DNA of 64,000 bases from Pseudonocardiaceae bacterium (GCA_035552275.1 DASZLR010000141.1:9186-73185), one strand, 5' to 3'; shown: positions 39,275 through 62,805, counted from the first letter of the stretch. The notes: generated by a model not told the origin, from the letters alone. Translations and numbers: made by a program.

Positions 39275-39282
39275 TCCACGAG

Positions 39283-40833: not shown

Positions 40834-40868
40834 GAACCGTGCGTGCCACTCGTCGCGGCACACGGCTC
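40834..40868 (-). ncRNA. Group II intron domain V (inner intron)
   Basis: The minus strand reads GAGCCGTGTGCCGCGACGAGTGGCACGCACGGTTC. It has an AGC triad and a basal stem GAGCCGTG/CACGGTTC, and it overlaps the IEP stop codon. Confidence 0.8.
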
Positions 40869-44919: not shown

Positions 44920-45020
44920 ACCTCCATGATCACCGGGAAGTGATCGCGGCGCATCACTCGATCGAGTGATAGGTCGAACGAATGTTCGATACGCTGAGTG
45001 ATGCTGGCGGGTCGAGAAAG

Positions 45021-46397: not shown

Positions 46398-46630
46398 CCT
46401 CCGCTACCACAGCTGACCGTGATGCGCATACTGGTCAGTACGGCAGCGCCCAAATTTGTCGGCTGACGATAAGATTACCTCGCCTCTGTGTCAATAGGTG
46501 GTACCACACGCCCACCCCTATGGGGTACACCGGGGTCTCACTATTCACCGACAGTGCCGAGGGTTGGCTCGCCCTGGTGGTTATGCGAGGCTGTTTCCGC
46601 ACAATCGGCGACGTCAGGGCGGCAGGGGCC

Positions 46631-48631
46631 ATGCGCGGAACGCACCGCCGCGGGCTCCGCCATATCGCGGTCGCCGGCGGCCTGCTGGGGCTACTCGGCG
46701 TGGGCGTGGTCGCCTTGAGCGGCAACACATCCGATCTCGGCCCGGTTCCGGACTCCGCCGCGCCCCCGCCGAACTACCTTGGCCTGGACAGCTACCTGCA
46801 CTGGGACAAGTTGCCGTACCTGGAAATCGGTGACCGGGTCGGTGGCCAGTCCACTGCGGATCCCGGCGGCAGCAACAGCGTCGGCAACGGGTTGGGGAGT
46901 CTGCCCGACGGCGAACGGGTTCTGTTCGACCAGGCCGGTCCGGGCGTGGCGACTTTTTTGCGAATGCAGCAGGGCACGGGCGGCCCGTGGCGGTTGCGCC
47001 AGGACGGCGTCGACACCGTGATCGGCGCCAACGACCTCGGCCAGCGGCGGCCGACGACAGCCCCCGGCGTGCGGTTTCCCTATCCGCTGTCGCTCAACAA
47101 GACGGAAAGCCAGGGCAGCAGCGTCGTCGCCACCGCCCTGCCCTTTGGCCGGGACCTGAGCCTGACCTCGTCGTCGGCCAACGGGAATTTCTATTCGCTG
47201 TACCGAAAACTGCCGATCGACGCGCCGCTGCCGCAACAGAACGCGGACACCGTCAACCGGGTGGCGGCGCTGCTGCGGTCGTCCGCGAGCGATCTCCTGC
47301 CGGCGGATCTCACCGCGCAGCGGGGCACCCTGTCGCTGGCCGGCGGCGCGTCCGGCACGGTGACCACCATCGCGGGCAGCCAGGAAATCCGGACGATCAC
47401 CTTCGCGGTGCCGGTCGCCGACATGGTGTCGTTCGGGGACGCCCGGCTGCGTATCTACTGGAACGGCGAGTCGGCGCCGAGCGTGGACGCGCCGATCGGG
47501 TACCTGGCCGGGGACGGCGGCGGGGTCTATCAGCCGGCCGGTCGACCGCTGGTGGGCGCTTTTCCCAGTGATATCACCGCGATCACCGGCCCGGATGGCA
47601 GCCCGTATCTGCGGTTCAGTCTGTACTGGCCGATGCCGTTCACCGCGGGGGCGCGCATCGAGCTGGCGTCCGGACCGGTGGCGACCGGTCCGGTGAGCTG
47701 GTCGGTGGGGTACCAGCGGTTCACCGATCCACCCAACTGGGTCGGCACATTCCACGCCAACTACACCGAGATCCCGCGTCCCACGCCCGGTCAGGACATG
47801 AGCTTCCTGGACTATCGGGGCAGCGGCAAACTGGTCGGCACGGTGATCAATTTCGGCGCGGTGGGCACCACCCTGGAGGGGGACCCGCACATCTATCTCG
47901 ACGGCAGCCGCACGCCGCAGATCGTCGGCACCGGAACCGAGGAATGGGGGATGGGCGGCGACTACTGGAACAATGGCCGGCAGACGACACTGCCGCTGGC
48001 CGGACTGCCGTCCACGAACGACAATCCACAAGGGACTGATGTGGACGGGGCCGCCGAATACCGGTTCCTGATCGCCGACAGCATTCCGTTCAACAGCCGG
48101 ATCGTGGTCAACTGGGAACACGGCGGGGTGAACGAGTCGACGCCGCCGTATCGGGCCACCATGCTGTGGTACGGCAATCCGAACCCCACGGCGGTGCGCA
48201 CCGATCAGTTGGCGGCGTCGGGTGGAAGCGGCTACCGACTGGACTCGGCGTACGAGTACACGGTGACCGCGCCGACGGTCGGCGGGACGATGACCGCGAC
48301 CACCGGGCAGGCTGATTTCGTGCTGAAGCCGCGACCGGACAACGTGGGCGCCTTCCTGCGTCGCACTTTTGATTCGTGTGTGCCGAATCAGCGCGCCACG
48401 GTGCTGGTCGACGGCCGGTTCGCCGGCACCTGGTACGACCCGGGCGGATCACCGCGCGCCGAGAATCGGTGCTGGCGGCAGGAGGACTTTCCGTTGCCCG
48501 CCAGCCTCACCGAAGGCCGCGACGCGATCACCGTCACCGTGCGGAACGCGCCATCGCCCAGCGCCGGGCTACCCGCCGGCACGGTGTGGACCGCGGCCGA
48601 CTACGCGCTGTACAGCTTCGTCACCGCGTGA
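46631..48631 (+). CDS. Secreted DUF2961 / GH172-like protein
   Basis: I chose the ATG at 46631 (MRGTHRRGLRHIAVAGGLLGLLGVGVVALSG signal/TM). The region EGDPHIYLDGSRTPQIVGTGTEEWGMGGDYW resembles the DUF2961 core (EGDE..DG...GTG.EDYF). The call is from memory of the family and was not searched. Confidence 0.5.
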   Translation: MRGTHRRGLRHIAVAGGLLGLLGVGVVALSGNTSDLGPVPDSAAPPPNYLGLDSYLHWDKLPYLEIGDRVGGQSTADPGGSNSVGNGLGSLPDGERVLFDQAGPGVATFLRMQQGTGGPWRLRQDGVDTVIGANDLGQRRPTTAPGVRFPYPLSLNKTESQGSSVVATALPFGRDLSLTSSSANGNFYSLYRKLPIDAPLPQQNADTVNRVAALLRSSASDLLPADLTAQRGTLSLAGGASGTVTTIAGSQEIRTITFAVPVADMVSFGDARLRIYWNGESAPSVDAPIGYLAGDGGGVYQPAGRPLVGAFPSDITAITGPDGSPYLRFSLYWPMPFTAGARIELASGPVATGPVSWSVGYQRFTDPPNWVGTFHANYTEIPRPTPGQDMSFLDYRGSGKLVGTVINFGAVGTTLEGDPHIYLDGSRTPQIVGTGTEEWGMGGDYWNNGRQTTLPLAGLPSTNDNPQGTDVDGAAEYRFLIADSIPFNSRIVVNWEHGGVNESTPPYRATMLWYGNPNPTAVRTDQLAASGGSGYRLDSAYEYTVTAPTVGGTMTATTGQADFVLKPRPDNVGAFLRRTFDSCVPNQRATVLVDGRFAGTWYDPGGSPRAENRCWRQEDFPLPASLTEGRDAITVTVRNAPSPSAGLPAGTVWTAADYALYSFVTA

Positions 48632-48750: not shown

Positions 48751-49818
48751 TCAGCTCGACAGGCCCAGCGTCGAGGCGATCGACGGCCAGGTCTTGTCGA
48801 ACTCGCGCTGCCAGTACGGCCACGAGTGCGTGCCGTTGCCGTAGTAGTCCGTCGTCACTGGAATGCCCTGCTGCTGCATCATGTTCGTGAAGCTCTGCGA
48901 CGACTGGAGCACCCACGGCTCGATGAGGTCGCCGTTCGCCGACGGCGATCCCGGCGTGTCCAGCGGCCCGGGCGAACCGTTCCCGGACGACACGAACAAC
49001 TTGATGCCCTTGAACGCCTGCGGATGGTCGTACGGGTTGTGGGCGTTCCAGATGCCTATGTTCATGTAGGGATCACCCCACAGCGCCCACGGGTTGGAGC
49101 CGTCCCGACCCAGCACCGCCCACTGGATGAACTGCTGCACCGAATACAACTCGGTGTTCGGGATGCCGCTGTAGGAGAACGCTCCCTGGAACATGCCCGG
49201 ATTCTGGAAGGCGTACTCCAACGCGCCGAACCCGCCGATGGACAGCCCGGCGACGACCCTGCGCGTGCCGGCTCGGAAGTCCCGGGTCAGGATCTGCAGC
49301 AGTTCCTTGGTGTGGAACGTGGACCAGTCCGGCTTGTTCGCGCCCCAGTTCCACCACGCCGAGTACATGCCGTCCTCGCCGTCGGCGGGCATCACGATCA
49401 GCGCGTCGGAACTCGCCGTGACGTTCTCCACGTCGGTGTTGATCGTCCAGTCCTGGTAGTCGTTCTGGTCGTTGGACCCGCTCAGCAGGTACAGCACCGG
49501 CCAGCTCTGGCCGGGCTGGCTGCTCCAGTCCGCCGGCAGTTCCACCCGAACCGGCTCGGTGGCGCCCACCGCCGGCGAGGAGATCTGCACGTCGAGGGTG
49601 CGCGCGTCGACCTGGGTCTCCGAGACGATGCTCGCGCCGTCGTCGGCGCTGGCGGTGCCGGTTCCGTCCAGGCCGACGGCCGCCGAGGCGGTGCCCGCCT
49701 GCCAGGCCACGATCCCGGACGCGACAACGGTTCCGCCGACCAGGATGCTCACGATCCGACGCCCCCGCCAGCGTCGGCGCGGAGCCGCCCGATCGGCTGC
49801 TCTTCGGGTGAACCTCAT
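48751..49818 (-). CDS. Secreted esterase of the esterase D / antigen 85 (mycolyltransferase-like) family
   Basis: Arg-rich signal peptide (RRRWRGRRIVSILVGG...ASAAV). PVLYLLSG and VAGLSIGGFGALEYA (GxSxGG) are typical of PF00756-type esterases. It lies 27 nt downstream of accD on the same strand. Confidence 0.75.
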   Translation of the reverse strand: MRFTRRAADRAAPRRRWRGRRIVSILVGGTVVASGIVAWQAGTASAAVGLDGTGTASADDGASIVSETQVDARTLDVQISSPAVGATEPVRVELPADWSSQPGQSWPVLYLLSGSNDQNDYQDWTINTDVENVTASSDALIVMPADGEDGMYSAWWNWGANKPDWSTFHTKELLQILTRDFRAGTRRVVAGLSIGGFGALEYAFQNPGMFQGAFSYSGIPNTELYSVQQFIQWAVLGRDGSNPWALWGDPYMNIGIWNAHNPYDHPQAFKGIKLFVSSGNGSPGPLDTPGSPSANGDLIEPWVLQSSQSFTNMMQQQGIPVTTDYYGNGTHSWPYWQREFDKTWPSIASTLGLSS

Positions 49819-49845
49819 ACGTGAGCCTCCTTGATCACATTCCGC

Positions 49846-51450
49846 TCAAAGCGGGATATTGCCGTGCTTGCGGGCCGGAATCGTGCTTCTCTTCTGTCGC
49901 AGCATCCGCAGTGCGCTCGCGACCTCAGTTCTGGTGTGCGCCGGCCGAATCACCCGGTCGACGTAGCCGCGCTCGGCGGCCGCGTACGGCGTCGCGACGG
50001 TTCGCTGGTACTGCGTGGTCAGTTCTCGACGCAGCCGGCCCCGCTCCGGCTCGTCCTGTTTGGACAGCCCTCGGCCGTGCAGCACCTGCACCGCGCCGAC
50101 CGCACCCATCACCGCGATCTCGGCCGTCGGCCAGGCGAGGTTCACGTCCGCGCCGAGGTGCTTGGAGCCCATCACCGCATAGCCGCCGCCGTAGGCCTTT
50201 CGGGTCACCACGGTGACCTTCGGGACGGTGGACTCGGCGTAGGCGTAGATCAGCTTGGCGCCCCGGCGGATGATGCCCTGCCGCTCCTGCGCGACGCCGG
50301 GCAGATAACCGGGCACGTCGGCGAAGGTCAGCAGCGGAATGCCGAACGCGTCGCAGAACCGGACGAACCGAGCCGCCTTCTCGGACGCGTCGATGTCGAT
50401 GGCGCCGGCGAAGTGCCGGGGCTGGTTGGCCACCACACCCACGGTGTGCCCCTCGACCCGGCCGAACGCGCAGATCATGTTGGGCGCGAACCGGTCGTGC
50501 ACCTGGAGCACGTCGCCGTCGTCCACCACCCGGCGGAGCACGTCGAGCATGTCGTAGCCCTGGTCGCCGGCGTCGGGCACGATGCCGTCCAGCTCCAGAT
50601 CCGCCGCGGTCAGCTCGTGCTCGGTGTCGTCGGCGTAGGCCGGCGGCGGACTGGTGTTGTTGCTGGGCAGGTAGCCCAGCAGGGTCTTCACCCAGTCGAT
50701 GGCGTCGGTCTCGTCCGCCGCCAGATAGTGCGAGTTGCCGGACACCGTGCTGTTGGTGAGCGGACCGCCGAGCTCTTCCAGGGTCACGTGCTCGCCGGTC
50801 ACGGCGGACACCACCTCCGGTCCGGTGATGACCATGTGCGAGGTGTTGTCCACCATCACGGTGAAGTCGGTGATCGCGGGGGAGTAGACCGAGCCGCCGG
50901 CGCACGGGCCCAGGATCAGCGAGATCTGCGGGATCACCCCGGAGGCCAGCGTGTTGCGCCGGCCCAGCTCGGCGTAGTACGCCAGCGAGACCACGCCCTC
51001 CTGGATGCGCGCGCCGCCGGAGTCGTTGATGCCGATCAGCGGGCAGCCGATCCGCATCGCGAGGTCCATCACCTTCAGCACCTTGGCCCCGAACGCCTCG
51101 CCCATGCTGCCGCCGAACACGCTGAAGTCCTGGGAGAACAGGCATACCCGGCGGCCGTCGACGGTGGCGTGCCCGGTGACCACGCCGTCGCCGTACGGGC
51201 GGCTGGCGTCCATGCCGAAATCGGTGCAGCGGTGCCGGGCGAGCTGGTCGGTCTCCACGAACGATCCCGGATCCACCAGCAGCTCGATCCGCTCCCGCGC
51301 GGTCAGCTTGCCCTTGGGGTGCTGGCGCTCCACGGCCCGCTTCTCCGCGATACGCAGCGCGTCGTCCTGCCGCATCAGCAGGTCGTCGATCAGCGACGCG
51401 GTGCCCGATGTCAGGTCGCGAACCTCAGCGTTGAACATCTCATCGAACAT
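49846..51450 (-). CDS. accD: Acyl-CoA carboxylase carboxyltransferase beta subunit (AccD family)
   Basis: 534 aa. GKLTARERIELLVDPGSF, GINDSGGARIQEG and PQISLILGPCAGG are present, along with the second CT repeat. Its start lies 1 nt after the PKS stop. Confidence 0.9.
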   Translation of the reverse strand: MFDEMFNAEVRDLTSGTASLIDDLLMRQDDALRIAEKRAVERQHPKGKLTARERIELLVDPGSFVETDQLARHRCTDFGMDASRPYGDGVVTGHATVDGRRVCLFSQDFSVFGGSMGEAFGAKVLKVMDLAMRIGCPLIGINDSGGARIQEGVVSLAYYAELGRRNTLASGVIPQISLILGPCAGGSVYSPAITDFTVMVDNTSHMVITGPEVVSAVTGEHVTLEELGGPLTNSTVSGNSHYLAADETDAIDWVKTLLGYLPSNNTSPPPAYADDTEHELTAADLELDGIVPDAGDQGYDMLDVLRRVVDDGDVLQVHDRFAPNMICAFGRVEGHTVGVVANQPRHFAGAIDIDASEKAARFVRFCDAFGIPLLTFADVPGYLPGVAQERQGIIRRGAKLIYAYAESTVPKVTVVTRKAYGGGYAVMGSKHLGADVNLAWPTAEIAVMGAVGAVQVLHGRGLSKQDEPERGRLRRELTTQYQRTVATPYAAAERGYVDRVIRPAHTRTEVASALRMLRQKRSTIPARKHGNIPL

Positions 51451-51451
51451 C

Positions 51452-54400
51452 TCAGGGCTCCTTGCGACCGTGCTCCGCCGAGCCGAGGGCGTCGGCGAGG
51501 TGGTGTGCCAGGACCGCCACGTTCGGCGGGTCGATCATGGTCACGTGGTCACCCGGCACCCGGACCACGCGCAGGTCGGCGCACAGCTCGTCCCAGCCCA
51601 ACGCCTCGTCGGTGCGCAGGTAGCGCGGGTCCAGCGAGGTGGTCAGCTGGTGCTGGTCGGCGGCCCGCAGCAACAGGACCCGCCCGTCGTACGGCCGCGG
51701 TTGGTACCGCTCGGACACCCGAGCATCCACATAGGACGTGTACTGGTGGCGCAGCACCGCCTCGCCCAGATCGGGCACCCGGCTGGACAGTCTGTCCAGC
51801 ACGAACCTGATCTGCTCCGGTTCATCCAATGTGGACAACTCAGTGATGGAGATGTCCAGCCGCACGCCGTAGGTGTGCTCGACGTGCTCGGCGAACCGGG
51901 CGAACCGCTCCAGCAACAGCACCTGTGGCGAGGCGTTGGGCGCGGGCAGCGGCAGGATCGAGTCGATCATCGCCACCAGCGACACCCGCTGCCCGGCCTT
52001 GGTCAGCACCGAGGCCACCTCGTACGCCAGACAGCCGCCGAACGACCAGCCGCCCAGCAGGTACGGGCCGTCCGGCTGGATCTCACGCAGCAGCTCGACG
52101 TACCGGGCGGCCTTGTCCTCGACAGTGTCCACATCGTCCAGTCGCTCGTAGCCGTAGCACGGCCGTCCATTCGGCAGCGCGGCGATCAGCGGCTGGTACA
52201 CGCTCGTCGGTCCGCCCGCCGGGTGGAACAGGTGCAGTGGCACATCGGCGCCCTCGGCCCGCAGTGCGCGTACCACCATCTGATGTGGATTGTCCTCGAA
52301 CGAGGACCGGAGCAGGTCGGCCATCACCGCGATGGTCGGGTTGGCGAACAGCGACTCAACCTCGGGCACCGGGCCGCGGTCGCCGATCCGGTCCGCGATC
52401 AGCGCCCGTACCTGGTCGGCCAGCACATCGTCGCCGCCGACCGCGAAGAAGTCGTCATGCACACCCATTCCGTTGCGGCCCAACACATCCCGCCACAGCA
52501 GGGCCAGCCAACGTTCGGTGGCGTCGCGCGGCCCGATCGGCCCATGCGCCGCCGGCGCGGCAGGAATCCGCTCGGCGTTCGGCTGGGCGGCGGCGGGTTG
52601 CGGGGTGGGCACGGTGGGTACGGTGGGTTGCGGGCCAGGCGGGGAAGGCACGGTGGGTTGCGGGCCAGGCGGGGAGGGCACGGTGGGTACAGTGATGCCC
52701 ACGGTCGCGGCCAGCTCGTCCGCGACGTCGGCGAGGCTCGCGCCGCGCAGCAGCGCCGAGACCGGTGGCGGCACGCCGAGATCGTGTTGCACCGCCGCGC
52801 GCATCCGCATCGCCATCAGCGAGTCCAGCCCGAGCTGGGTGAGCGGCAGGTGCTGGTCCAGCCGGTCCGGCGTGGTGCCGATCAGCCCGGCCAGCAGGTT
52901 CGCCAGCCGGTTGCGCAGCACGTCCACGCCTTCGTCCGGCGCCATTCGGCGCACCGCTGCCAAGCCCGGCCAGTCATCCCCGCCGGCCGAACCGTCCACA
53001 GTGGTCGGACCGGCGCCGGCCAGCAGGTCGGCGAGGAACGGCCGGCTCGCCAGTTCCGGGTAAAGGTCCAGGGTCGTCGCCAGGTCCACCCGGGCGACGC
53101 CGGTGGCCGCCCGGCCGCCGGCCAAGATCGTCTCCATCGCCGCGACGCCCTGCTCCGGTCGCAGCGCCGCCAGCACCGCGTTGGCCCGGTCCGCTCCGTC
53201 AGCGTCCGCGCGTTCCCAAGCGCCCCACTGGATGGTGGTCGCTGGCAGGCCCTGCCGGCGGCGGTCGGCGACCAGCCCGTCCAGCCAGGCGTTGGCGGTG
53301 GCATAGGCGGCCTGGCCCGGCGACCCGAACAGCGCGGCGACCGACGAGAACACCAGCCACCAGTCCAGCGGCACGTCCGCGGTGGCCTCGTGCAGCGCGG
53401 CGCCACCGAGCACCTTGGGGCGCCACACCGTCATCAGGTCATCCTCGGTCAGCTCGATGGCCAGCCGGTCGGCCAGCACGCCGGCCGCGTGCACCACGCC
53501 GTAAAGCGGCAGGCCGTCGGCTTGAGCGTGGTCGACCAGTCGTCGGGCCACGCCCGGCTCGGCGATGTCGCCGGGCACCACGTCGATCTCGGTGCCATTC
53601 GCCCGCAGTTCGCCCAGCACCGCGATGGTCGCCGGGGAGGGCCCGTGGCGGCCGCTGAGCACCACCCGTCTGGCCCCGCCGGCAACCAGCCAGCGGGCCA
53701 CCCGCAGACCGAGCTCGCCGAGACCTCCGGTGATCAGGTAGGCGCCGGGCCGGACAGTCCGGCCCGCGGGCTCGACGCCGGACTCGGCCTGGGCCAGGTC
53801 GGTGCGGGCCAGCCGGGCGGTGTAGCGGACATCGCCGCGCCAGGCGACCTCGTCGGCGGCGGAGTCGGCGCGCAACTCGTCGGCCAGGTGGTCCACGGTC
53901 GCGCCGGCGCCGAGGTCCACCAGGCTGGCGCGCAGCTCGGGATGCTCGAACGCGAGCACCCGGACCAACGCCCGCAGACAACCCAGGCCCGGCGCGCCGG
54001 ATTCGGCCGGGTCCACCGCTGTGCCGCCGACGGTGACGAACCACAGTCGCGGCGTCGGGTCCGAGCGTCGTTCCAACTCGCGGACCCACGCCGCCGCCGT
54101 GTGCACCCACTGCCGGGCCCGCGCCGGATCGGTGTAGTCGTCGGCCGGGCCGGCGATCAGCACCACGTCCGACGGGCGGATGTCGCCGATGTCCTGGTCG
54201 TCCGGACGATCGTGGCCGTGCACCGGCGTCGCCCGGTCGCCGTGCTCGGCCAGCAGATCCGCCAGCGCGGCTCGGTCCACAGTGGACTTGTCGGTGTCGT
54301 CTGTGCCGTCGGTGGCCAGCAGCCAGGCGCGCGGTCGCCGCGCGGCCGGCGGCAGCGGGTCCGGCTTCCAGCGCAGCTCGAAACCGAGATCGCGCGGATC

Positions 54401-57400
54401 GGCGGGCAATTCGGCCAGGCTCATCCGGTGGGCCCGGACATCGGCGATCTCGGCCAGCACCTCCTCGTCGGGACCGACGAGTTGCACCGTGCCGACCAGG
54501 GTCTGACCGCCGTCGACCGGACGGAGCACGGCGTCACACCGCACCCCGCGTGCCGGATCGCCGTAAACCTGTGCGGAGCCGATCGCCCTCGGCAGGTAGA
54601 CGCCGGTGGAGTCGGCCTGGCCGTACCCGGCGGCGACCAGCGCGTGCAGGCACGCGTCGGCGAGCGCGGGATGCAGGCCGAACGCCGGATGCGCGGTGGT
54701 CGGATCGGGCAGCGTCACCGACGCCGAGGCGCGGCCGGGCACCGCGCGCACGTCGCGCAGGCCGCGGAACGCCGGACCGTACTGCTGTCCGGACCGGGCC
54801 AGCACCGGATACAGGTCGAGCGGTTCGCCCTCGGTGACCGATCCCAACGGGTTCGGCGGCGGCGCGTCGTCCGGCCGCACGAAGGCGGTGGCGTGCAGCG
54901 TCCAGCCACCACCGGCCGCCGGCGCCGACACGGTCACCCGACCACCAGCGCCCACCGCGCCGACCGGCTCGAACACGGTGGTGACCTCGGTGCTGGCCGA
55001 CAGCGGCAGTAGCTCGCGGAGGTCGAGGTTCTCCACCCGCACCCGGTCCACGCCCAGCGCCGTTCGGCCGGCGGATCGGGCCATCTCCAGGTATCCGGTC
55101 GCGGGCAGCACGCTCACCCCGTAGGCCTGGTGATCGGCCAGCCAGGGCAGCGCCTCGGTGCCGATGTCGGCCTGCCAGGCGTGCCGGCCGTCCGGCATGG
55201 CGACATGCGAGTCCAGCAGTGGATGGTGGTTCGTTCTGGGCTTGGCGCTCGGCGCGGCGATCCAATGCCGCTCGTGCTGCCAGGCCGGTCCGGGCAGGTC
55301 GAGGACGGGGGAGCGGGGGTAGCGGAGGGTGAGCACGTCGGCGTGGCCGTGCGCGTGCAGCGCGGCGACGGTCGGCAGACAACCGTCCTGTTCGGACTTC
55401 CGGTTCAGGCTGCCGAGCGCCAGCACGCCGCCGACATTCTCGGCGGCGGCGGTCTGCTCGACCGACCCGATCGCGATCGGATGCGGCGCGATCTCGACGA
55501 AGGTTCGGTGTCCGTCGGCCAGCGTCGCGGCCAGCGCCTGGGTGAACCGGACCGGGCGGCGCAGGTTGGCCGCCCAGTAATCGATGTCGAAGCGTGGCTG
55601 AGCGCGCGGGTCGTCCAGCACGCTGGAGTAGCACGGCACCCGGGGCGGCGTCGGCTCGACGGCGGCGATGGCGGCGCGGAACTCGGCCAGCAGCGGCTCG
55701 ACCGCCGCCGAGTGCCCGGCCCCGCCGACCGGCAGCTTGCGGGCCAACCGGCCCAGTGCTTCCGCGTGCCGGACCAGCGCGTCGATCTGCTCCGGCGGCC
55801 CGCCGACGGTGCACTGCGCCGGGGCGCCGTAGACGGCGATCGACACGTCGGGGAATTCGGCGCGCAGCGCGGCAAGTTCGGTCGCGGACAGCTCGACCAC
55901 CGCCATCGCGCCCTGCCCGGCGTTGTCCACGCCGGCGAGTAGCCGCGATCGGGCCGTGACGATCCGCAGTCCCTGTTCCACGTCCAGCGCGCCGGCGACG
56001 ACCGCGGCGGCGATCTCGCCCATCGAATGCCCGACCACGGCCGCCGGATGCACGCCCTGCGCACGCCAGAACTCGGCCAGTGCGACCTGCATGCCGAACA
56101 GCACCGGTTGCAGGACGCTGAGGTCGGTCAGCATCTCGTCGCTGCCCAGCGCCTCGCGCAAGGAGAACCCAGCGACTGAACGGAAACTCGGCGCCAGCGT
56201 GACCACCGCGCGTCGGAAGTCTGGTTCGGCGGCCAGCAGCCGACGACCCATCCCAGCCCACTGCGACCCGTACCCGGAGAACACGAACACCGGCCCGGTC
56301 CCGCTGCCAGGCCCATTACCACGAACCCGGCTGCCGGCGGATTGCGCTGTCCACAACGAATCCGGTTGTCCACAGGACGCCGAATCGCCCTTCGCCGGCC
56401 CCGTCGGCGCCGATAGACTGGCCACGGGGCCGCCCCCGGGTGGGTGGGGGGTATCTACGGGTGCTGGCGGGGTGCGTTGCGGCGCTTGGGTTTCGGGGAC
56501 CCGCGGGGCCGCCAGGCGGGTGCGGGCGAGGGTGACAGCGGGCGACGGTTCGCCCGCGGCGAGGGCGCGCAGCGCGGCGGCCAGATCGTCCCGGTTCGCG
56601 GCGACCACGGCGGCGCGGACGGTCAGGTGGTCGCGGCGGGCAACCAGCGCGGCGGCGACATCAGCCAGCGGGACCGGCCGTCCGGCCGGTGAGAGGATCC
56701 ATTCCGCCAGGTCGGCTGCGCGGGCCCGAACCCCCGCCTCCGACATCGCCGACAGCGCGAACACCTGCGCCGACTCGGCCGAGGGGGCATCGGAGTCCAT
56801 CGGCGGTGCCGCCGACCATTCCTCCATCACCACGTGCGCGTTGCTGCCGCCGAAGCCAAACGCCGACACACCGGCGCAGGCCAGCCCGGAGTAGCGCGGC
56901 CACGCCAGCGGCGTCGCCGCCACCGACAGCTTCAGCGCGTCGAAGTCGATCAGCGGGTTCGGCTCGTGGTAGTGCAGGCTGGCCGGGATCCGGCCGTTCG
57001 CCAGCGCAAGCACCACTTTGATCAGGCCGACGATCCCGGCCGCGCCCTCCAGGTGGCCGAGGTTCGTCTTCACCGAGCCGAGCAGCAGCGGCCGGTCGCC
57101 ACTCCGGCCAGCGCCGAGCACCTCGCCCAGCGCGGCCGCTTCGATCGGGTCGCCGAGCAGCGTGCCGGTGCCATGCGCCTCCACATAGTCCACAGTGGCC
57201 GGATCGACATCGGCCGCCGTGTACACGTCGCGCAACAGCGCGGCCTGCGCCTCCGGATTCGGCGCCATCAGTCCATTCGAACGGCCGTCGCTGTTCGTTC
57301 CACTGCCGCGGATCAGCGCCAGCACCCGGTCGTCCGCGCGGCGCGCGTCGGACAACCGCCGCAAGATGACCACACCGCAGCCCTCGCCGCGCGCGATACC

Positions 57401-58351
57401 GTTGGCCGACGCGTCGAATGCCTTGCACCGGCCGTCCGGGGCCAGCACGCCCGCATGGCCGAAAGCGGCGGTGACGGCCGGCGTCAGCAGCGTGTTGACT
57501 CCGCCGACCACCGCCAAGTCGATCTCGCCCGCGCGCAGCGCCCGCACCGCCTGGTGCACCGCCACCAGCGACGACGAGCACGCCGTGTCCACCACCACGC
57601 TCGCGCCGCGCAGGTCGAGCAGATACGACAGCCGGTTGGCGATCACGCTGCCCGCCGCGCCGGTCGCCGACCACGCGTCAACCGCGTCGATATCGGCCAT
57701 GCTCAGCGATCCGTACTCGGTCGCCGACACACCCATGAACACGCCGGTGCGGCTGCCGCGCAGCGAGCCGGGCGCGATGCCGGCCTGCTCCAGCGCCGCC
57801 CACGCCACTTCCAGCACGATCCGCTGCTGCGGGTCCATCACCGCGGCCTCGCGCGGGGTGATGCCGAAGAACGCGGCGTCGAATCCGGCGACATCGTCCA
57901 GGTAACCGCCGAGCGGCGCCTGGGTCTCGGCCGGCCAGCGGCCCTCCGGTGGCGAGCCGATGACGTCCCGGCCGGAGTCCAGCAGGTTCCAGAACCGCCC
58001 AGCCGACTCGACGCCGCCGGGCAGCCGGCAGTCGACGCCGATCACCGCGATCGGCTCGCCGGCATCGCTGACCCCGCCGCGGGAAACCCCTGGAGCGGCA
58101 GCCGAATCGCCGGTCAGCGCGGCCACCATCGAGGCGATGCTCGGGTGCTGGTAGACAAACGTGGGCCCCAGCGCGCGTCCGACCACATCGGACAGTTCGG
58201 TGGCCAGGGTCACCGCGTTCCGCGAGGACAGGCCGAATTCATGCACCGCTCGGTCGACCTGCACCTCGCCCACCGTGAGCTCCGTCAGTGCGGCTACCCG
58301 GGCGGTCAGCCACCCGGTCAGCTCATCCGGCCCCATCGACTTACTGGTCAT
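51452..58351 (-). CDS. Type I PKS: ACP-KS-AT-DH-KR-ACP-(degenerate carrier)-TE
   Basis: I chose the ATG at 58351 (MTSKSMGPDEL...), which overlaps the FAAL stop (ATGACCAGTAA).
- **N-ACP:** EFGLSS, nt about 58333-58112.
- **KS:** 58057-56816, with DTACSSS, EAHGTGT and NLGHLEGAAG.
- **AT:** 56302-55391, with GHSMGE and a GAGH specificity motif.
- **DH:** 55234-54401, with HPLLD, LADHQAYGVSVLP and ADACLH.
- **KR:** 53743-53201, with YLITGGLGELG and the S...Y...N catalytic residues.
- **ACP:** 52948-52721, with LGLDS.
- **PCP-like domain:** 52528-52301, with GGDD in place of GGDS.
- **TE:** 52258-51491, with GWSFGG. Confidence 0.9.
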   Translation of the reverse strand: MTSKSMGPDELTGWLTARVAALTELTVGEVQVDRAVHEFGLSSRNAVTLATELSDVVGRALGPTFVYQHPSIASMVAALTGDSAAAPGVSRGGVSDAGEPIAVIGVDCRLPGGVESAGRFWNLLDSGRDVIGSPPEGRWPAETQAPLGGYLDDVAGFDAAFFGITPREAAVMDPQQRIVLEVAWAALEQAGIAPGSLRGSRTGVFMGVSATEYGSLSMADIDAVDAWSATGAAGSVIANRLSYLLDLRGASVVVDTACSSSLVAVHQAVRALRAGEIDLAVVGGVNTLLTPAVTAAFGHAGVLAPDGRCKAFDASANGIARGEGCGVVILRRLSDARRADDRVLALIRGSGTNSDGRSNGLMAPNPEAQAALLRDVYTAADVDPATVDYVEAHGTGTLLGDPIEAAALGEVLGAGRSGDRPLLLGSVKTNLGHLEGAAGIVGLIKVVLALANGRIPASLHYHEPNPLIDFDALKLSVAATPLAWPRYSGLACAGVSAFGFGGSNAHVVMEEWSAAPPMDSDAPSAESAQVFALSAMSEAGVRARAADLAEWILSPAGRPVPLADVAAALVARRDHLTVRAAVVAANRDDLAAALRALAAGEPSPAVTLARTRLAAPRVPETQAPQRTPPAPVDTPHPPGGGPVASLSAPTGPAKGDSASCGQPDSLWTAQSAGSRVRGNGPGSGTGPVFVFSGYGSQWAGMGRRLLAAEPDFRRAVVTLAPSFRSVAGFSLREALGSDEMLTDLSVLQPVLFGMQVALAEFWRAQGVHPAAVVGHSMGEIAAAVVAGALDVEQGLRIVTARSRLLAGVDNAGQGAMAVVELSATELAALRAEFPDVSIAVYGAPAQCTVGGPPEQIDALVRHAEALGRLARKLPVGGAGHSAAVEPLLAEFRAAIAAVEPTPPRVPCYSSVLDDPRAQPRFDIDYWAANLRRPVRFTQALAATLADGHRTFVEIAPHPIAIGSVEQTAAAENVGGVLALGSLNRKSEQDGCLPTVAALHAHGHADVLTLRYPRSPVLDLPGPAWQHERHWIAAPSAKPRTNHHPLLDSHVAMPDGRHAWQADIGTEALPWLADHQAYGVSVLPATGYLEMARSAGRTALGVDRVRVENLDLRELLPLSASTEVTTVFEPVGAVGAGGRVTVSAPAAGGGWTLHATAFVRPDDAPPPNPLGSVTEGEPLDLYPVLARSGQQYGPAFRGLRDVRAVPGRASASVTLPDPTTAHPAFGLHPALADACLHALVAAGYGQADSTGVYLPRAIGSAQVYGDPARGVRCDAVLRPVDGGQTLVGTVQLVGPDEEVLAEIADVRAHRMSLAELPADPRDLGFELRWKPDPLPPAARRPRAWLLATDGTDDTDKSTVDRAALADLLAEHGDRATPVHGHDRPDDQDIGDIRPSDVVLIAGPADDYTDPARARQWVHTAAAWVRELERRSDPTPRLWFVTVGGTAVDPAESGAPGLGCLRALVRVLAFEHPELRASLVDLGAGATVDHLADELRADSAADEVAWRGDVRYTARLARTDLAQAESGVEPAGRTVRPGAYLITGGLGELGLRVARWLVAGGARRVVLSGRHGPSPATIAVLGELRANGTEIDVVPGDIAEPGVARRLVDHAQADGLPLYGVVHAAGVLADRLAIELTEDDLMTVWRPKVLGGAALHEATADVPLDWWLVFSSVAALFGSPGQAAYATANAWLDGLVADRRRQGLPATTIQWGAWERADADGADRANAVLAALRPEQGVAAMETILAGGRAATGVARVDLATTLDLYPELASRPFLADLLAGAGPTTVDGSAGGDDWPGLAAVRRMAPDEGVDVLRNRLANLLAGLIGTTPDRLDQHLPLTQLGLDSLMAMRMRAAVQHDLGVPPPVSALLRGASLADVADELAATVGITVPTVPSPPGPQPTVPSPPGPQPTVPTVPTPQPAAAQPNAERIPAAPAAHGPIGPRDATERWLALLWRDVLGRNGMGVHDDFFAVGGDDVLADQVRALIADRIGDRGPVPEVESLFANPTIAVMADLLRSSFEDNPHQMVVRALRAEGADVPLHLFHPAGGPTSVYQPLIAALPNGRPCYGYERLDDVDTVEDKAARYVELLREIQPDGPYLLGGWSFGGCLAYEVASVLTKAGQRVSLVAMIDSILPLPAPNASPQVLLLERFARFAEHVEHTYGVRLDISITELSTLDEPEQIRFVLDRLSSRVPDLGEAVLRHQYTSYVDARVSERYQPRPYDGRVLLLRAADQHQLTTSLDPRYLRTDEALGWDELCADLRVVRVPGDHVTMIDPPNVAVLAHHLADALGSAEHGRKEP
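52608..52690 (-). repeat. 30-nt tandem repeat encoding a Pro-rich interdomain linker (VPSPPGPQPT x2 plus partial copies)
   Basis: On the plus strand, cggtgggttgcgggccaggcggggaRggca occurs at 52621-52650 and 52651-52680 with one mismatch, flanked by partial cggtgggta units. Confidence 0.9.
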
Positions 58352-60113
58352 CGGCGAGGTACTGGTCGCGGCAGGCGAATCGGGCGATCTTGCCGCTGGA
58401 CGTCCGGGGCAGCGAGTCGGCCGGCACCAGCCGGACGTCCCGTAGCGCCAGGCCGTGGCCCTCGGACACCGCCGCCCGCACGGCCACCCGCACCTCGGCC
58501 TCGTCGATGTCGTCCGCCGACACTTTCCGAGCCAGCTCGGCCAGCACCACCGCCTGCTCACCGGACTCACCCGACACGGTGAACGCGACGGTGTTGTTCC
58601 GCCGGATCGCGGTGTGCGCGTGCTCCACGGTCTGCTCGATGTCGTGCGGGTAGTGGTTACGGCCGTCCACGATGATCATGTCCTTGATCCGGCCGGTGAC
58701 GAACAGCTCGCCGTCGTGTCGAACGCCGAGGTCGCCGGTGCGCAGCCACCAGCGCGGGTCGGTCGCGGCGCCCTCCTCGTCGCGCAACTGGTTGTGGAAC
58801 GTCCGCGCGGTCTCCTCCGGCTGACCCCAGTAGCCGTGCCCGACATTCGCACCGCTCACCCAGACCTCGCCGACCTCGCCGTCGCCGCGCGCCCGCCGGG
58901 TCTCCGGGTCCACGATCGCCACGTCCTGGTCGACCGGGATGCCGCAGGACACCAGTTCGACCGCACCGTCCGCACCTTCGGCCATCGGCACCGCCTGCCC
59001 TGCCGCCAGCCGCGCCCGGTCCAGCACCCGCCGCACCGGCGGCTGGCCGGGCACGCTGGCGGACACGAACACGGTGGCCTCGGCCAAGCCATAGGAGGGT
59101 CGGTGCGCCTCCGGTCGCAGCCCGCACTCGGCGAACGCGCTCCGGAACTTCTCGATCGCCGCCGACCGCACCGGCTCCGCGCCGTCGATCAGCGTGGTCA
59201 CCGTGTCCAGCCGCAGCCGCAGCTTGTCCTGGTCGGACACCCGCGCCGCGCACACCGCGTAGGCGAAGTTCGGCGCCGCGCTGATCGTGCCCGGGTTCGC
59301 CGACATCGCGCGCAGCCAGCGTTCCGGCCGCTCGATGAACGCGAACGGGTCGATCAGCACCGTGCGCACCCCGGCCACCAGCGGCGCGGCCACCGCCAGC
59401 ATCAGACCCATGTCGTGGAACAGCGGCAGCCAGCTCACCATGGTCGAGTGGCCCGGCCGCACCTGGTACGCCCGGATGGCGTGGCGCGCGTTCGCGATCA
59501 CGTTGCCATGGCTGACCATCACACCGCGCGGCGCGCCGGTGGAACCCGAGGTGTACTGCAGATAGGCGAGATCGTCCGGGCGCACCGGCACCGGCGCGTC
59601 CTTGCCGAACATCGCGCCGGCCGGGGGCAGGTCGTCCACGGCCACCGGCTCGGTCACCGCGAGACCGGTCGAGTCGATGAACGCCGCGACGTCCGCCCGG
59701 TGGGCCGAGGTGGTGAGAATCGCGGCGGGCGAGCAGTCGCGCAGCACGGCTTCCAGCCGGCCGGCGTGGCCGGGCAGGCTCGGCGCGAACAGCGGAACGG
59801 CGACGGCTCCGGCCCGCAGCGCACCCAGGAACGCCGCGACGTAGTCCGGGCACTGGTCGATCAGCACCGCCACCGGTTGGCCGACATTGACCCGACGGCG
59901 CAGCGCGGCGGCCACCGCGGTCACCCGGTCGTCCAACCGCTGCCAGGTCCATGAGGTCTGCGTCCCACCGGGCCGCTCGCGGTAGTCGAGCCAGTTGATC
60001 GCGGTCTGGTCACCGGCCAGCGCCGCCCACTGCGTCAGCAGACCGGGCAGCGAGGTGTCATCGGCCTCGCGCGTCACCACCGAAACGCCGAACGAAGCTA
60101 TGCCAGAACTCAT
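58341..60113 (-). CDS. Fatty acyl-AMP ligase (FAAL, FadD32-like) loading the downstream PKS
   Basis: I chose the ATG at 60113, preceded by gaggag 7 nt upstream; the track start is 60164. Motifs are LQYTSGSTGAPRGVMVSHGN, WLRTGDLG and PRTSSGKIAR. The stop overlaps the PKS start. Confidence 0.85.
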   Translation of the reverse strand: MSSGIASFGVSVVTREADDTSLPGLLTQWAALAGDQTAINWLDYRERPGGTQTSWTWQRLDDRVTAVAAALRRRVNVGQPVAVLIDQCPDYVAAFLGALRAGAVAVPLFAPSLPGHAGRLEAVLRDCSPAAILTTSAHRADVAAFIDSTGLAVTEPVAVDDLPPAGAMFGKDAPVPVRPDDLAYLQYTSGSTGAPRGVMVSHGNVIANARHAIRAYQVRPGHSTMVSWLPLFHDMGLMLAVAAPLVAGVRTVLIDPFAFIERPERWLRAMSANPGTISAAPNFAYAVCAARVSDQDKLRLRLDTVTTLIDGAEPVRSAAIEKFRSAFAECGLRPEAHRPSYGLAEATVFVSASVPGQPPVRRVLDRARLAAGQAVPMAEGADGAVELVSCGIPVDQDVAIVDPETRRARGDGEVGEVWVSGANVGHGYWGQPEETARTFHNQLRDEEGAATDPRWWLRTGDLGVRHDGELFVTGRIKDMIIVDGRNHYPHDIEQTVEHAHTAIRRNNTVAFTVSGESGEQAVVLAELARKVSADDIDEAEVRVAVRAAVSEGHGLALRDVRLVPADSLPRTSSGKIARFACRDQYLADDQ

Positions 60114-60395
60114 CCCGCGGCTCCTCACGCCAGTTGGTGACGCCGGCGCGGGCATGCAGCCCAAAAAACACGGGTAATCCGCGACGTGATTAGCGCCGTG
60201 TCCTGTCGCCGTCCCGGCTCAAATTCGACTTGGCTCACCGTAATTGGCCGCCCGGTCGCCCGTCAACGGCCGGGACAGTGGATGTGTCTATTCCGGACGG
60301 CCGTTAGGAACGGCTTTGTGAATTATATGAGCAGCCGGTCGTCGGGACTTGTGGCAAAGCTACAGACACGGCCCGTTTTCCCCAGCCGGCGGATG

Positions 60396-61571
60396 CTAGC
60401 GGAACGCGTTCAGGCCGGTCACCGCGTTGCCGACGGTCAACGCGTGCACTTCCTCGGTGCCCTCGTAGGTGAGCACCGTTTCCAGGTTCGCGGCGTGCCG
60501 CATCACCGGGTACTCCAGCGTGATGCCGTTCGCGCCGAGCACCGTCCGGGCGCTGCGGGCGACGTCCAGCGCGGCCCGCACGTTGGCCAGCTTGCCCAGG
60601 CTGACCTGGCTGGGGTGCAGCGATCCCGCGTCCTTGAGCCGGCCGAGGGTGAGCGCGACCAGCCCGGCCCGGTTCACCTCGACCACCATGTCGGCGAGTT
60701 TGCGCTGGGTCAGCTGGAAACCGCCCAACGGCCGGCCGAACTGCTCGCGGGTGAGGCTGTACTCCAGGGCTGACTCATAGCAGGTCCGCGCCGCCCCGAC
60801 CGCGCCCCAGACGATGCCGAACCGGGCTTCGTTCAGGCAGCTCAGTGGGCCGCGCAGGCCCCGGGCCTCGGGCAGCATCGCCTCGGCCGGCAGCCGCACG
60901 CCCGCCAGGACCAGCTCGGCGGTCACCGAAGCGCGCAGCGAAAGCTTGTGGTGCACCTCGTTCGCGGTGAATCCGGGCGTGTCGGTGGGCACCACGAACC
61001 CGCGAACGCCCTCGTCGGTGCGCGCCCATACCACCGCCACCGAGGCCAGCGTGCCGTTGGTGATCCACATCTTGGCGCCGTCCAGCACCCAGTCCGAGCC
61101 GTCCCGCCGGGCGCGGGTGCGCATCGAGCCCGGATCGCTGCCGGAATCCGGCTCGGTGAGGCCGAAGCAGCCGATGACCTCGCCCGTTGCCAGCCGGGGC
61201 AGCCATTCCCGGCGCTGCGCCTCGCTGCCCCAGTGGTGGATCGCGAACATCGCCAGCGAGCCCTGCACGGACACGAAGCTGCGCAGCCCGGAGTCGATCG
61301 CCTCCAGTTCTCGGCAGGCCACCCCATAGGCGACCGCGCTGGACCCGGCGCAGCCGTAGCCGGTCAGGTGCATCCCGAAGACACCCAGCTCACCGAGGCC
61401 GGCGGCGATCTCGCGGGGCAGCGTGCCGCGCTCGTACCAGTCCGCCACGTGCGGCGCGAGCTTCGACCGCGCGTAGTCGCGCACGGTGTCCCGCACATCG
61501 CGTTCGGTGTCGTCCAGTTGGGCGTCCAGGGCCAGGAAGTCGCGCGGATCGGGCGTCTCGGACGTGCTCAT
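60396..61571 (-). CDS. Acyl-CoA dehydrogenase, glutaryl-CoA dehydrogenase-like
   Basis: CFGLTEPDSGSDPGSM and DGAKMWITNG are present, along with the C-terminal ...TYEGTEEVH. Overall length is 391 aa. Confidence 0.8.
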   Translation of the reverse strand: MSTSETPDPRDFLALDAQLDDTERDVRDTVRDYARSKLAPHVADWYERGTLPREIAAGLGELGVFGMHLTGYGCAGSSAVAYGVACRELEAIDSGLRSFVSVQGSLAMFAIHHWGSEAQRREWLPRLATGEVIGCFGLTEPDSGSDPGSMRTRARRDGSDWVLDGAKMWITNGTLASVAVVWARTDEGVRGFVVPTDTPGFTANEVHHKLSLRASVTAELVLAGVRLPAEAMLPEARGLRGPLSCLNEARFGIVWGAVGAARTCYESALEYSLTREQFGRPLGGFQLTQRKLADMVVEVNRAGLVALTLGRLKDAGSLHPSQVSLGKLANVRAALDVARSARTVLGANGITLEYPVMRHAANLETVLTYEGTEEVHALTVGNAVTGLNAFR

Positions 61572-61842
61572 CGAAAAGTGCTCCTCACCTGGCGTTTCCT
61601 CGTCCGGCCGGCGCTGGGCGGACGCGGAACATGTGTATCAGACGGCGGTCGCGGTGGCGCTTCTTGTCATAGTCGTCACAAATGGTTCATCATGACTGCG
61701 CAGCCGATTATGAAGGCGCCAGGCCGGCTGTCCGAGCGGGATCCGCAGGCGATTGAGCACACCGCAGGGAGGTTCTTCACCGGTATTCTCTTGCTTGCCG
61801 GAGATGAACGCGACCGCCGGTACTGACCGACAGGATACGTGC

Positions 61843-62805
61843 ATGGAGCGACCGCGGATCGAAGTGCTCGATCTCGGGAAGTCGTACGGTCAGGTCAACG
61901 CGCTGGCCAATGTCACTCTCCGGGTCGGCGCGGGCACGGTGCTCGGCGTGTTGGGGCACAACGGCGCCGGAAAGACGACACTGGTCGACATTCTCGCCAC
62001 CCGCGGCCGGCCCACCACGGGCTCGGCCAAGGTGTGCGGGTGGGACGTGGTCAAGCACGGCGACAAGGTGCGCGAGCGGATCGGCATGACCAGCCAGTTC
62101 GTCGCGGTCGACGACGGCATGACCGGCCGGGACAACCTGATCCTGCTGGCTCGCCTGCTCGGCGCCAACGCGCGCCAGGCCAAGGCCAGGGCCGAGGAGC
62201 TGTTGGAGGCGTTCGACCTGGTCGACGCCGCGAACCGGAAATCGTCCACCTACTCCGGCGGGATGCGTCGGCGGCTGGACCTGGCCGCCAGCCTGATCAG
62301 CCGGCCCGACGTGCTGTTCCTGGACGAGCCCACCACCGGTCTCGACCCGGCCAGCCGCACCGACGTGTGGGGGTTCGTGGAACGGCTGGCCGCCGACGGC
62401 ACCACCGTGTTCCTCACCACCCAGTACCTGGAGGAAGCCGACCGGCTGGCGCACCAGGTGGTGGTGCTCGCGGCCGGCTACGTCGTCGCCTCCGGCACCC
62501 CCGACCAGCTCAAGGCCGGCATCGGCAAGCGGCACGTGATGGTGACCCTGGCCAGCTCGCACGCCACCTTCCACGCGGCGGCCGCGCTGACCCGGCATCG
62601 GCTGTCTCCGGTGGCGGACGCGAAACTGTGCACCGTGATGGTGCCGATTCCGGAAGCCGGTGATATCGCGGCCGTGGTGCGCGCGTTGGACTCGGCGCGC
62701 ATCCCGATCCAGGATCTCAAGATCAGCGAACCCAGCCTGAACGATGTGTACATGGCGCTGCACCGCTCGGGATGGAACAGCGACGGGTGGCGGTCGGCCT
62801 CATGA
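61843..62805 (+). CDS. ABC transporter ATP-binding protein (DrrA-like, ABC-2 exporter family)
   Basis: The ATG at 61843 gives MERPRIEVLDLGKSYG. Walker A GHNGAGKTT, signature YSGGMRRRLDLA and Walker B LFLDEPTTGLD are present. Confidence 0.85.
   Translation: MERPRIEVLDLGKSYGQVNALANVTLRVGAGTVLGVLGHNGAGKTTLVDILATRGRPTTGSAKVCGWDVVKHGDKVRERIGMTSQFVAVDDGMTGRDNLILLARLLGANARQAKARAEELLEAFDLVDAANRKSSTYSGGMRRRLDLAASLISRPDVLFLDEPTTGLDPASRTDVWGFVERLAADGTTVFLTTQYLEEADRLAHQVVVLAAGYVVASGTPDQLKAGIGKRHVMVTLASSHATFHAAAALTRHRLSPVADAKLCTVMVPIPEAGDIAAVVRALDSARIPIQDLKISEPSLNDVYMALHRSGWNSDGWRSAS

Follow-up and report, generated by a model that had tools for sequence, protein, structure and literature searches.

A minus-strand FAAL-PKS-AccD-esterase operon in a Pseudonocardiaceae bacterium: a Pks13-type condensation system of the reducing kind

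Organization and conservation of the operon

We analysed a stretch of 64,000 nucleotides from a Pseudonocardiaceae bacterium (GCA_035552275.1, DASZLR010000141.1:9186-73185). This whole stretch is referred to as the window, and all positions are counted from its first letter. An operon of four genes lies on its minus strand. These encode one fatty acyl-AMP ligase (FAAL), one single-module type I polyketide synthase (PKS), a carboxyltransferase, i.e. the beta subunit of an acyl-CoA carboxylase (AccD), and a secreted esterase of the mycoloyltransferase family. The PKS has the following order of domains: acyl carrier protein (ACP), ketosynthase (KS), acyltransferase (AT), dehydratase (DH), ketoreductase (KR), a second ACP, a dead ACP and a thioesterase (TE). 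We conclude that the operon belongs, as an ordinary member, to an uncharacterised and widespread family of operons, which is a Pks13-type condensation system in a reducing form. The positions and motifs of all genes and domains are listed in Table 1.

The operon had been described in an earlier note made from the DNA sequence. We confirmed the four genes and the translational coupling that the note reported between them. The FAAL gene starts with the ATG at 60113, with gaggag as ribosome-binding site in front of it, and ends with the TAA at 58343-58341. The PKS start, the in-frame ATG at 58351, overlaps the end of the FAAL gene by 11 nt. An alternative in-frame ATG at 58336 lies 4 nt past the FAAL stop and is a better fit to the N-terminal consensus of the homologues (MxxxEL); the coupling is tight with either start. 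A single base separates the PKS stop (TGA, 51454-51452) from the accD ATG at 51450. Between the accD stop (49848-49846) and the esterase ATG at 49818 there are 27 nt, which include aaggagg. A terminator-like hairpin was found at 60183-60169, between the FAAL gene and the acyl-CoA dehydrogenase gene upstream of it. The region upstream of FAAL contained no match to the sigma-70 consensus.

Table 1. Genes of the operon, domains of the PKS and the upstream region, with positions in the window
Feature	Position	Strand	Motifs and matches
Non-coding region 5' of FAAL, probable location of the operon promoter	60114..60395	-	sequence
FAAL, 590 aa	58341..60113	-	Pfam AMP-binding and DIP2-like C-domain
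PKS, single-module type I, 2299 aa	51452..58351	-	Pfam PP-binding/KS/AT/PS-DH/KR/PP-binding/Thioesterase
N-terminal ACP	58097..58327	-	GLSSRNAV at residue 40
KS	56969..58057	-	intact Cys-His-His triad: DTACSSS, EAHGTGT, NLGHLE
AT	55388..56290	-	GHSMGE (residue 774), GGAGHS (residue 876; GAGH specificity motif)
DH	54419..55225	-	HxxxGxxxxP (H1074), YGPAF, DxxxH (D1232)
KR	53213..53746	-	NADPH motif TGGLGELG; K1646, S1670, Y1683, N1687
Functional C-terminal ACP	52715..52909	-	GLDSLMA, S1844; aligned to Pks13's central ACP
Degenerate ACP-like domain	52313..52531	-	FFAVGGDD; phosphopantetheine Ser replaced by Asp
TE, Pks13-type thioesterase/acyltransferase domain	51515..52240	-	GWSFGG S2103, D2130, H2269
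AccD, acyl-CoA carboxylase beta subunit (carboxyltransferase), MccB type, 534 aa	49846..51450	-	Pfam Carboxyl_trans
Esterase, secreted, mycoloyltransferase family, 355 aa	48751..49818	-	Pfam Esterase PF00756, 104 bits

A genome scan gave 80 loci, onto which we mapped the window proteins with tblastn. The order FAAL, PKS with DH and KR, AccD, esterase was present in 15 fetched loci of the Pseudonocardiaceae (Amycolatopsis, Actinokineospora and Saccharopolyspora), and the esterase gene lay directly 3' of accD in 15 homologous loci. The arrangement is not due to chance, since many genomes have kept this order of genes. Full-length PKS homologues of the same architecture showed 50-55% identity and came mostly from Pseudonocardiaceae, i.e. 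from Amycolatopsis, Saccharopolyspora, Actinokineospora, Kutzneria and relatives. The AccD was 73-80% identical to the AccDs of homologous clusters (73-76% in Amycolatopsis). The cluster occurs without the esterase in Actinopolyspora, and some genomes have a second copy of the cluster that lacks AccD.

We also made two observations on the spread of such clusters. Three pairs of Actinokineospora loci (L003/L075, L021/L034 and L014/L038) represent genomes with two paralogous reducing clusters each: one cluster has AccD and the AT motif GAGH, the other has no AccD and the AT motif AAGH or AAAH. Pks13-like FAAL-PKS clusters were also encountered far outside the Actinomycetes proper, in two metagenome-assembled genomes (MAGs) of the Thermoleophilia: a Patulibacter MAG (L018, with AccD) and a Solirubrobacteraceae MAG (L055).

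Domain content of the PKS

We judged the conservation of the motifs on an alignment of the window PKS with 13 homologues (14 sequences). The catalytic residues of the KS, AT, DH, KR, ACP and TE were invariant or nearly so. The Ser/Asp/His triad of the TE and the GAGH motif of the AT were conserved among the homologues, and the Ser column of the degenerate ACP was not. Pfam shows three PP-binding stretches in all. The GLSSRNAV motif of the N-terminal ACP aligns with GLSSRDAV at the N-terminus of Pks13, and its residues S42 and S43 were invariant.

The earlier note had called the DH and the KR apparently intact, and we came to the same result. The motifs of both domains are complete: for the DH they read LADH..G....P, YGPAF and DACLH, and the Pfam match of the KR spans positions 1-179 of the 180 positions of the model. 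Both domains look active, and a product that is alkylated at the alpha position and processed at the beta position is a reasonable prediction. A 2-alkyl 2-enoyl lipid had been proposed in place of a beta-hydroxy lipid. In the pathway that we propose below the product would be the enoyl lipid, or a 3-hydroxy lipid if dehydration is incomplete.

Relationship to Pks13

The best NCBIfam model for the whole PKS was Pks13 (NF040607) with 1361 bits in 5 stretches, compared to an equivalog cut-off of 2100. Pks13 was also the best PDB match (964 bits), followed by MAS (926 bits). Pks13 has the architecture ACP-KS-AT-(DH*)-ACP-nonfunctional ACP-TE and no active reductive domains; the non-functional ACP lies right before the TE and the DH* pseudo-domain follows the AT (PMC11649247). 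The window PKS has every one of these domains, with the dead ACP ahead of the TE, and their order is unchanged; a full-length DH and KR are inserted. For the N-terminal ACP-KS as well as for the C-terminal dead ACP and TE the best match was Pks13. The dead ACP and the TE aligned to the C-terminus of Pks13 as a single stretch with 220 bits. The TE scored 192 bits against the Pks13 TE crystal chains, whereas the next best match, the TE of a non-ribosomal peptide synthetase, reached 131 bits and fatty acid synthase TEs ∼61 bits. Judged by homology and by the Ser/Asp/His triad, i.e. from the protein sequence, the domain is a Pks13-type C-terminal TE.

For comparison we used 11 true pks13 loci (L040, L044, L053, L059, L064-L066, L070-L072 and L080). 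These true mycolate loci, from Rhodococcus, Nocardia, Aldersonia, Antrihabitans and Mycolicibacterium, carry Ag85-like genes, FadD32, Pks13 and AccD4. The identity of the window proteins to their counterparts was 33-37% for the esterase, 43-44% for the FAAL, 42-48% for the ACP-KS, 33-36% for the TE and 49-53% for the AccD. In a neighbour-joining (NJ) tree of the TEs the 11 Pks13 sequences formed one clade, and the reducing PKS family was its sister clade. The KS, for its part 42-48% identical to the Pks13 KSs, grouped with FAAL-primed PpsA-like first modules in a rough NJ tree, and the Pks13 KSs had a clade of their own.

A further link was found in the region behind the AT. In the reducing family the DH has an N-terminal half that, in a profile-profile comparison (hhalign), was homologous to the DH* region of nine true Pks13 (probability 94.4%, E 9e-8), which were taken from the same loci except L044 and L053. 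The two regions share the motif PDGRHxW, and the stretch with the catalytic His is deleted in Pks13. A profile search detected no remnant of a KR in Pks13. The homology of DH* is consistent with a descent of Pks13 from a reducing ancestor.

Could the operon then be a bona fide pks13 locus of a mycolate producer of the Mycobacteriales? Pks13 is the top match in both NCBIfam and PDB, and the window contains Mce and DUF222 genes, as Mycobacteriales commonly do. However, the score is below the cut-off, the intact DH and KR are additional, and true Pks13 are 33-48% identical by domain and have their own KS and TE clades. Furthermore the best matches of the PKS, the AccD and the YrbE protein were all from Pseudonocardiaceae: the best named matches of YrbE were MAGs and genera of this family with 81-82% identity, and there were no Mycobacteriales among the top 120. 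We rejected this explanation on score, architecture and taxonomy. It is effectively refuted and we regard it as extremely improbable. The window PKS is not Pks13 and not an orthologue of it.

Extender unit

The position of the YASH/HAFH motif was compared across 118 ATs from the fetched loci. GAGH at this position is common to the reducing PKS family and the true Pks13 ATs, in the form (T/V)(K/R)GAGHT, or as GASH in Mycolicibacterium; it was found in 10 of the 11 true Pks13 ATs. The Pps/Mas ATs had VASH or VAPH and the malonyl ATs HAFH. In module 18 of the primycin PKS, GAGH has been tied to butyl-, pentyl- or hexylmalonyl units (PMC7522111); a review of ATs gave nothing on GAGH. As a whole, the AT of the operon scored 259-250 bits against PpsC, PpsA and MAS compared to 210 bits against the Pks13 AT.

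The AccD gave an indication in the same direction as the GAGH motif. Its best PDB match was MccB/SamR0483 (5INF) with 775 bits, compared to 740 bits for PccB, 655 bits for AccD5 and 540 bits for AccD4. The identity was ∼66% to MccB, 65-68% to PccB-like proteins and 50-55% to AccD4 (11 sequences adjoining true pks13). MccB of the stambomycin pathway was shown to carboxylate medium-chain acyl-CoAs, and its specificity was tied to two substitutions: Gly161, a position taken by Phe in every carboxyltransferase whose substrates have at most four carbons, and Ala423, which replaces Asp421/422 of PccB (Ray et al. 2016, PMC5187497). Both are present in the AccD of the operon, with Gly163 instead of Phe (YYAELG) and Ala425 instead of Asp422 of PccB (GGYAVMGS).

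We then tabulated these two positions for 160 AccD sequences. All 51 PccB-like sequences had Phe and Asp (..EIF or ..DIF, and GAYDVMGS). The PKS-linked AccDs had Gly or another small residue (Ala, Ser, Val) together with Ala, and the AccD4 sequences next to true pks13 had Gly, Ser or Ala together with Ala. In an NJ tree, calculated without support values, the AccD of the operon fell into a clade of 80 leaves with MccB and 17 PKS-linked AccDs, in which a small residue stands together with Ala and no sequence had Phe and Asp. The 51 PccB-like sequences were monophyletic, and AccD4 lay outside both clades. One acyl-CoA carboxylase beta subunit of known structure (PDB 9J0C) has Val and Gly at the two positions (YYAELV, GGYGVMGS) and is neither of the PccB nor of the MccB type.

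By both pocket residues and by its place in the tree the AccD belongs to the MccB type. It does not cluster with the short-chain PccB clade; such clustering is what the earlier note had named as contrary to its reading. We rejected a simple PccB on the same two residues and the placement. The comparison with accD4 drawn in the note stands for the position of the gene and for the pocket signature, which is common to both proteins. It does not stand for orthology: with 50-55% identity and 540 versus 775 bits the AccD is nearer to MccB and PccB. We predict that the enzyme forms 2-alkylmalonyl-CoA, with a housekeeping alpha subunit as partner whose gene lies elsewhere.

The features of AT and AccD also bear on the possibility of an ordinary secondary-metabolite PKS. 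In this case the FAAL-primed module would use malonyl or methylmalonyl units, possibly iteratively, and would form a small unsaturated lipid or polyene; the AccD would supply (methyl)malonyl-CoA and the esterase would be unrelated. KS-AT-DH-KR-ACP modules act iteratively in other systems. Such a role would agree with an AT that is overall most like the malonyl- and methylmalonyl-specific Pps/Mas ATs, with the similarity of the AccD to housekeeping PccB-like proteins, and with the paralogous clusters that have no AccD (L010, L021, L038 and L075). It is at odds with an AccD of the MccB clade that has neither the Phe of short-chain enzymes (PMC5187497) nor the Asp422 of PccB, and with an AT motif that is GAGH and not HAFH, YASH or VASH. 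The co-conserved esterase is specifically mycoloyltransferase-like and the TE is of the Pks13 type, which also speaks against it. We consider an ordinary PKS unlikely.

FAAL and secreted esterase

The top NCBIfam models for the FAAL were FAAL subfamilies with 575 and 563 bits, both under their cut-offs. The FadD32 model (NF038339) gave 520 bits at an equivalog cut-off of 975, so the protein is not assigned to FadD32. It was 49-62% identical to the FAALs of homologous clusters, compared to 43-44% for FadD32 of the mycolate loci. We predict that it activates a fatty acid and loads it onto the N-terminal ACP of the PKS.

For the esterase the 19 best PDB matches were all mycoloyltransferases, with scores from 152 down to 60 bits, whereas generic esterases reached at most 45 bits. 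The highest score was obtained for PS1/cMytA of C. glutamicum (152 bits); Cmt1 scored 75 bits and Ag85A/B/C 60-71 bits. GLSIGG (Ser), LIEPW (Glu) and GTHSW (His) align with the catalytic residues. The N-terminus is Arg-rich, followed by a hydrophobic part and ASA, and on inspection by eye it resembles a signal peptide. The PF00756 domain, the aligned triad and the closest solved relatives place the protein, as far as its sequence tells, in the mycoloyltransferase family, as had been proposed.

Lipases of the LIP type were observed at two places. In a homologous operon of Amycolatopsis such a gene lies immediately 3' of the esterase (L082, 19305-20534). In the window a secretory PF03583 LIP lipase (19203-20543) follows an Mce-type lipid uptake operon with two MlaE/YrbE permeases and MlaD/Mce proteins; operon and lipase together span 10875-20543 (+).

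Host and envelope context

By its best matches the host is probably an uncultured member of the Pseudonocardiaceae, for which the earlier note had raised the question of mycolic acids. According to the literature, the walls of the order Pseudonocardiales contain arabinogalactan and lack mycolic acids (PMC6194230). In 13 fetched loci (nine Amycolatopsis and four Actinomadura or Spirillospora) an MmpL gene lies within 10 kb upstream of the cluster.

These findings are relevant for the possibility that the product is a true mycolate-type 2-alkyl-3-hydroxy acid. Here the KR would carry out in cis the reduction for which mycobacteria use CmrA in trans, the DH would be idle on the alpha-branched intermediate, and the product would be exported and esterified to the wall or a sugar as an overlooked envelope lipid. 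A FAAL, a Pks13-like PKS, a long-chain-type AccD, MmpL and mycoloyltransferase homologues are all present, be it in the window or in near relatives. For Nocardiopsis, outside the Mycobacteriales, mycolic acids have been reported along with a homologue of Pks13 (PMC12632337), and the Pseudonocardiales have arabinogalactan walls (PMC6194230). However, the His, the Asp and the YGPAF motif of the DH are invariant or nearly so, which argues that the DH is used. Chemotaxonomy found no mycolic acids in the family (PMC6194230), and there is no MmpL gene in the window. Overall a true mycolate-type acid seems improbable to us.

Proposed pathway

We favour, as fairly probable, one Claisen condensation that is primed by the FAAL, uses an alkylmalonyl extender and would yield a 2-alkyl-2-enoyl (or 3-hydroxy) lipid. 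The FAAL would adenylate a fatty acid and load it onto the N-terminal ACP, which would hand the chain to the KS. The MccB-type AccD and a housekeeping biotin-carboxylase alpha subunit would convert a medium- or long-chain acyl-CoA to 2-alkylmalonyl-CoA, and the GAGH-type AT would put this unit on the functional C-terminal ACP. The KS would then join the two chains, once, to a 2-alkyl-3-oxoacyl-ACP. Reduction by the KR and dehydration by the DH would give the 2-alkyl-2-enoyl chain, while incomplete dehydration would leave a mycolate-like 2-alkyl-3-hydroxy chain. Release of the chain may be due to the Pks13-type TE, which perhaps passes it to an acceptor with a hydroxyl group, in the way that Pks13 uses trehalose. 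Outside the cell the secreted mycoloyltransferase homologue may hydrolyse or transfer the acyl chain; an MmpL exporter is encoded nearby in relatives. We observed the order of the genes, the domains and motifs, the homologies and their conservation; from homology we infer each chemical step, how long the chains are, what accepts them and where in the cell the product goes. An envelope destination of the product is plausible.

There are several points that weigh against this pathway. We found neither a carboxylase alpha subunit nor an MmpL homologue in the 64-kb window. The FAAL of the operon is not FadD32-specific, and the window has a second FAAL (37165-38958) with 53% identity to it. Taken as a whole, the AT is nearer to the Pps/Mas ATs, so that a motif of four residues bears much of the argument for the extender unit. 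The KS has no specific grouping with Pks13 in the rough NJ tree, and iterative action of a lone KS-AT-DH-KR-ACP module is conceivable in principle. The host family is classically regarded as mycolate-free (PMC6194230), hence any such lipid must be non-classical, minor or conditional. Finally, no experimental product is known for any member, and our searches of the literature on Pks13-like enzymes, mycoloyltransferases and FAAL/alkylmalonyl systems found no characterisation of the reducing cluster.

A wider interpretation is that Pseudonocardiaceae and other 'mycolate-free' actinomycetes build an overlooked alpha-alkyl envelope lipid with the reducing Pks13 homologue, AccD, MmpL and the esterase, perhaps on arabinogalactan or a sugar. 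The architecture of the operon would then be near that of the Pks13 ancestor, of which DH* would be a remnant. We offer this as a tentative and on balance doubtful proposal.

Condensation by FadD32, Pks13 and AccD4, export by MmpL3 and transfer by Ag85 are treated as a hallmark of the Mycobacteriales and a drug target. The operon is a conserved full-length relative of this machinery, with KR and DH, in a sister lineage that has arabinogalactan and no reported mycolates. If the product belongs to the envelope, our view of how diverse the cell envelopes of actinomycetes are would have to change, and a testable model for the origin of the mycolate pathway would be available. If it is a diffusible lipid, the operon would still be a widely conserved, uncharacterised route to alpha-branched unsaturated fatty acids, and the pair of AccD and AT would be useful for putting long alkyl branches into polyketides.

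Other features of the window

Downstream of the operon the gene of a DUF2961 protein (46520-48631, +) is convergent with the esterase gene. Upstream lies the acyl-CoA dehydrogenase gene (60396-61571, -), and beyond it a DrrA-like ABC ATPase and an ABC-2 permease are encoded divergently at 61753-63800 (+). A DUF222 protein (43804-44919, -) and an open reading frame (ORF) of 494 aa without a Pfam match (44982-46466) are located between the operon and two tandem group II introns. The introns span 39176-43239 (-) with reverse transcriptase/maturase ORFs at 39283-40812 and 40867-42669. Rfam reported Intron_gpII at 39176-39276 and 40793-40870 as well as a D1-D4 match at 43151-43239.

A second lipid cluster occupies 21066-38958 (+). 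It encodes a short-chain dehydrogenase/reductase, a megasynthase resembling polyunsaturated fatty acid synthases, an AT-DH protein (960 aa), an alpha/beta hydrolase, a glycosyltransferase, a ferredoxin-reductase-like protein, a fatty acid desaturase and, at 37165-38958, the second FAAL. The megasynthase has 2347 aa and the order NMO-type enoylreductase-KS-AT-ACP-KR; its best NCBIfam model is PfaA with 868 bits. The PKS genes of this cluster coincide with a G+C content of 0.73-0.75. At the start of the window, four paralogous DUF6801 proteins are encoded in a row at 8-7995 (+), namely at 8-1159, 1399-2790, 2889-4226 and 6298-7995.

Comparison with known systems

Clusters of this type are not new. 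They are widespread, and in 2016 Ray et al. drew attention to a cryptic cluster, widely conserved in Amycolatopsis, with a single-module PKS and a homologue of MccB (PMC5187497). In our data many Amycolatopsis loci have a single PKS module adjoining an AccD with the MccB residues, and from this description, rather than from accession numbers, we infer that the fetched Amycolatopsis clusters are the cryptic cluster. AccD4 is not mentioned in that study, nor is the cryptic cluster linked to Pks13 or mycoloyltransferases (PMC5187497). Relatives of Pks13 outside the Mycobacteriales are beginning to be noticed, given a 2025 preprint that describes mycolic acids and a Pks13 homologue of canonical architecture in Nocardiopsis bonnevillensis (PMC12632337).

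We also encountered a non-reducing group of clusters in five Streptomyces loci (L030, L031, L035, L039 and L052; positions ∼6500-15100 in each) with the order AccD, FAAL, PKS (ACP-KS-AT-ACP-TE, ∼1300 aa), esterase. They share with the operon the FAAL, the Pks13-type TE, the GAGH-type AT, the AccD with a small residue and Ala, and the mycoloyltransferase-like esterase. Unlike the operon they have no DH and KR, and the AccD lies 5' of the FAAL. In the TE tree 10 of 12 non-reducing Pks13-like sequences fell inside the span of the reducing family. We detected no DH* remnant in the Streptomyces non-reducing PKSs.

Compared to PpsA-type modules, the operon has in common the loading by a FAAL onto an N-terminal ACP, and its KS groups with them. 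For the AT-DH-KR segment the greatest similarity was to Pps/Mas PKSs. However, those use malonyl or methylmalonyl units (VAPH/VASH) and have neither a Pks13-type TE nor an adjacent long-chain-type carboxyltransferase or a mycoloyltransferase. The carboxylase of the stambomycin and primycin pathways supplies a single module within a giant modular PKS, whereas the AccD of the operon would serve a stand-alone FAAL-primed Pks13-like module.

The closest parallel is the mycolate locus fadD32-pks13-accD4 with Ag85, to which the earlier note had likened the operon, and this parallel holds for the gene order and for the four protein families. In both systems a FAAL, a PKS and a carboxyltransferase follow each other, a secreted esterase of the mycoloyltransferase family is present, and MmpL is found nearby, for the operon in its relatives. 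The PKS has, like Pks13, a GLSSR-type ACP followed by the KS, a GAGH-type AT, a functional ACP, a dead ACP and a Pks13-type TE, and the AccD has the small-residue/Ala pocket signature of AccD4. The two systems differ in the position of the esterase, which lies 3' of accD in the operon, whereas Ag85/fbp of the mycolate locus lies 5' of the FAAL, and in the host family, which probably makes no mycolates. They also differ between AT and ACP, where the window PKS has an intact DH and KR and Pks13 has the decayed N-terminal half of a DH and no KR.

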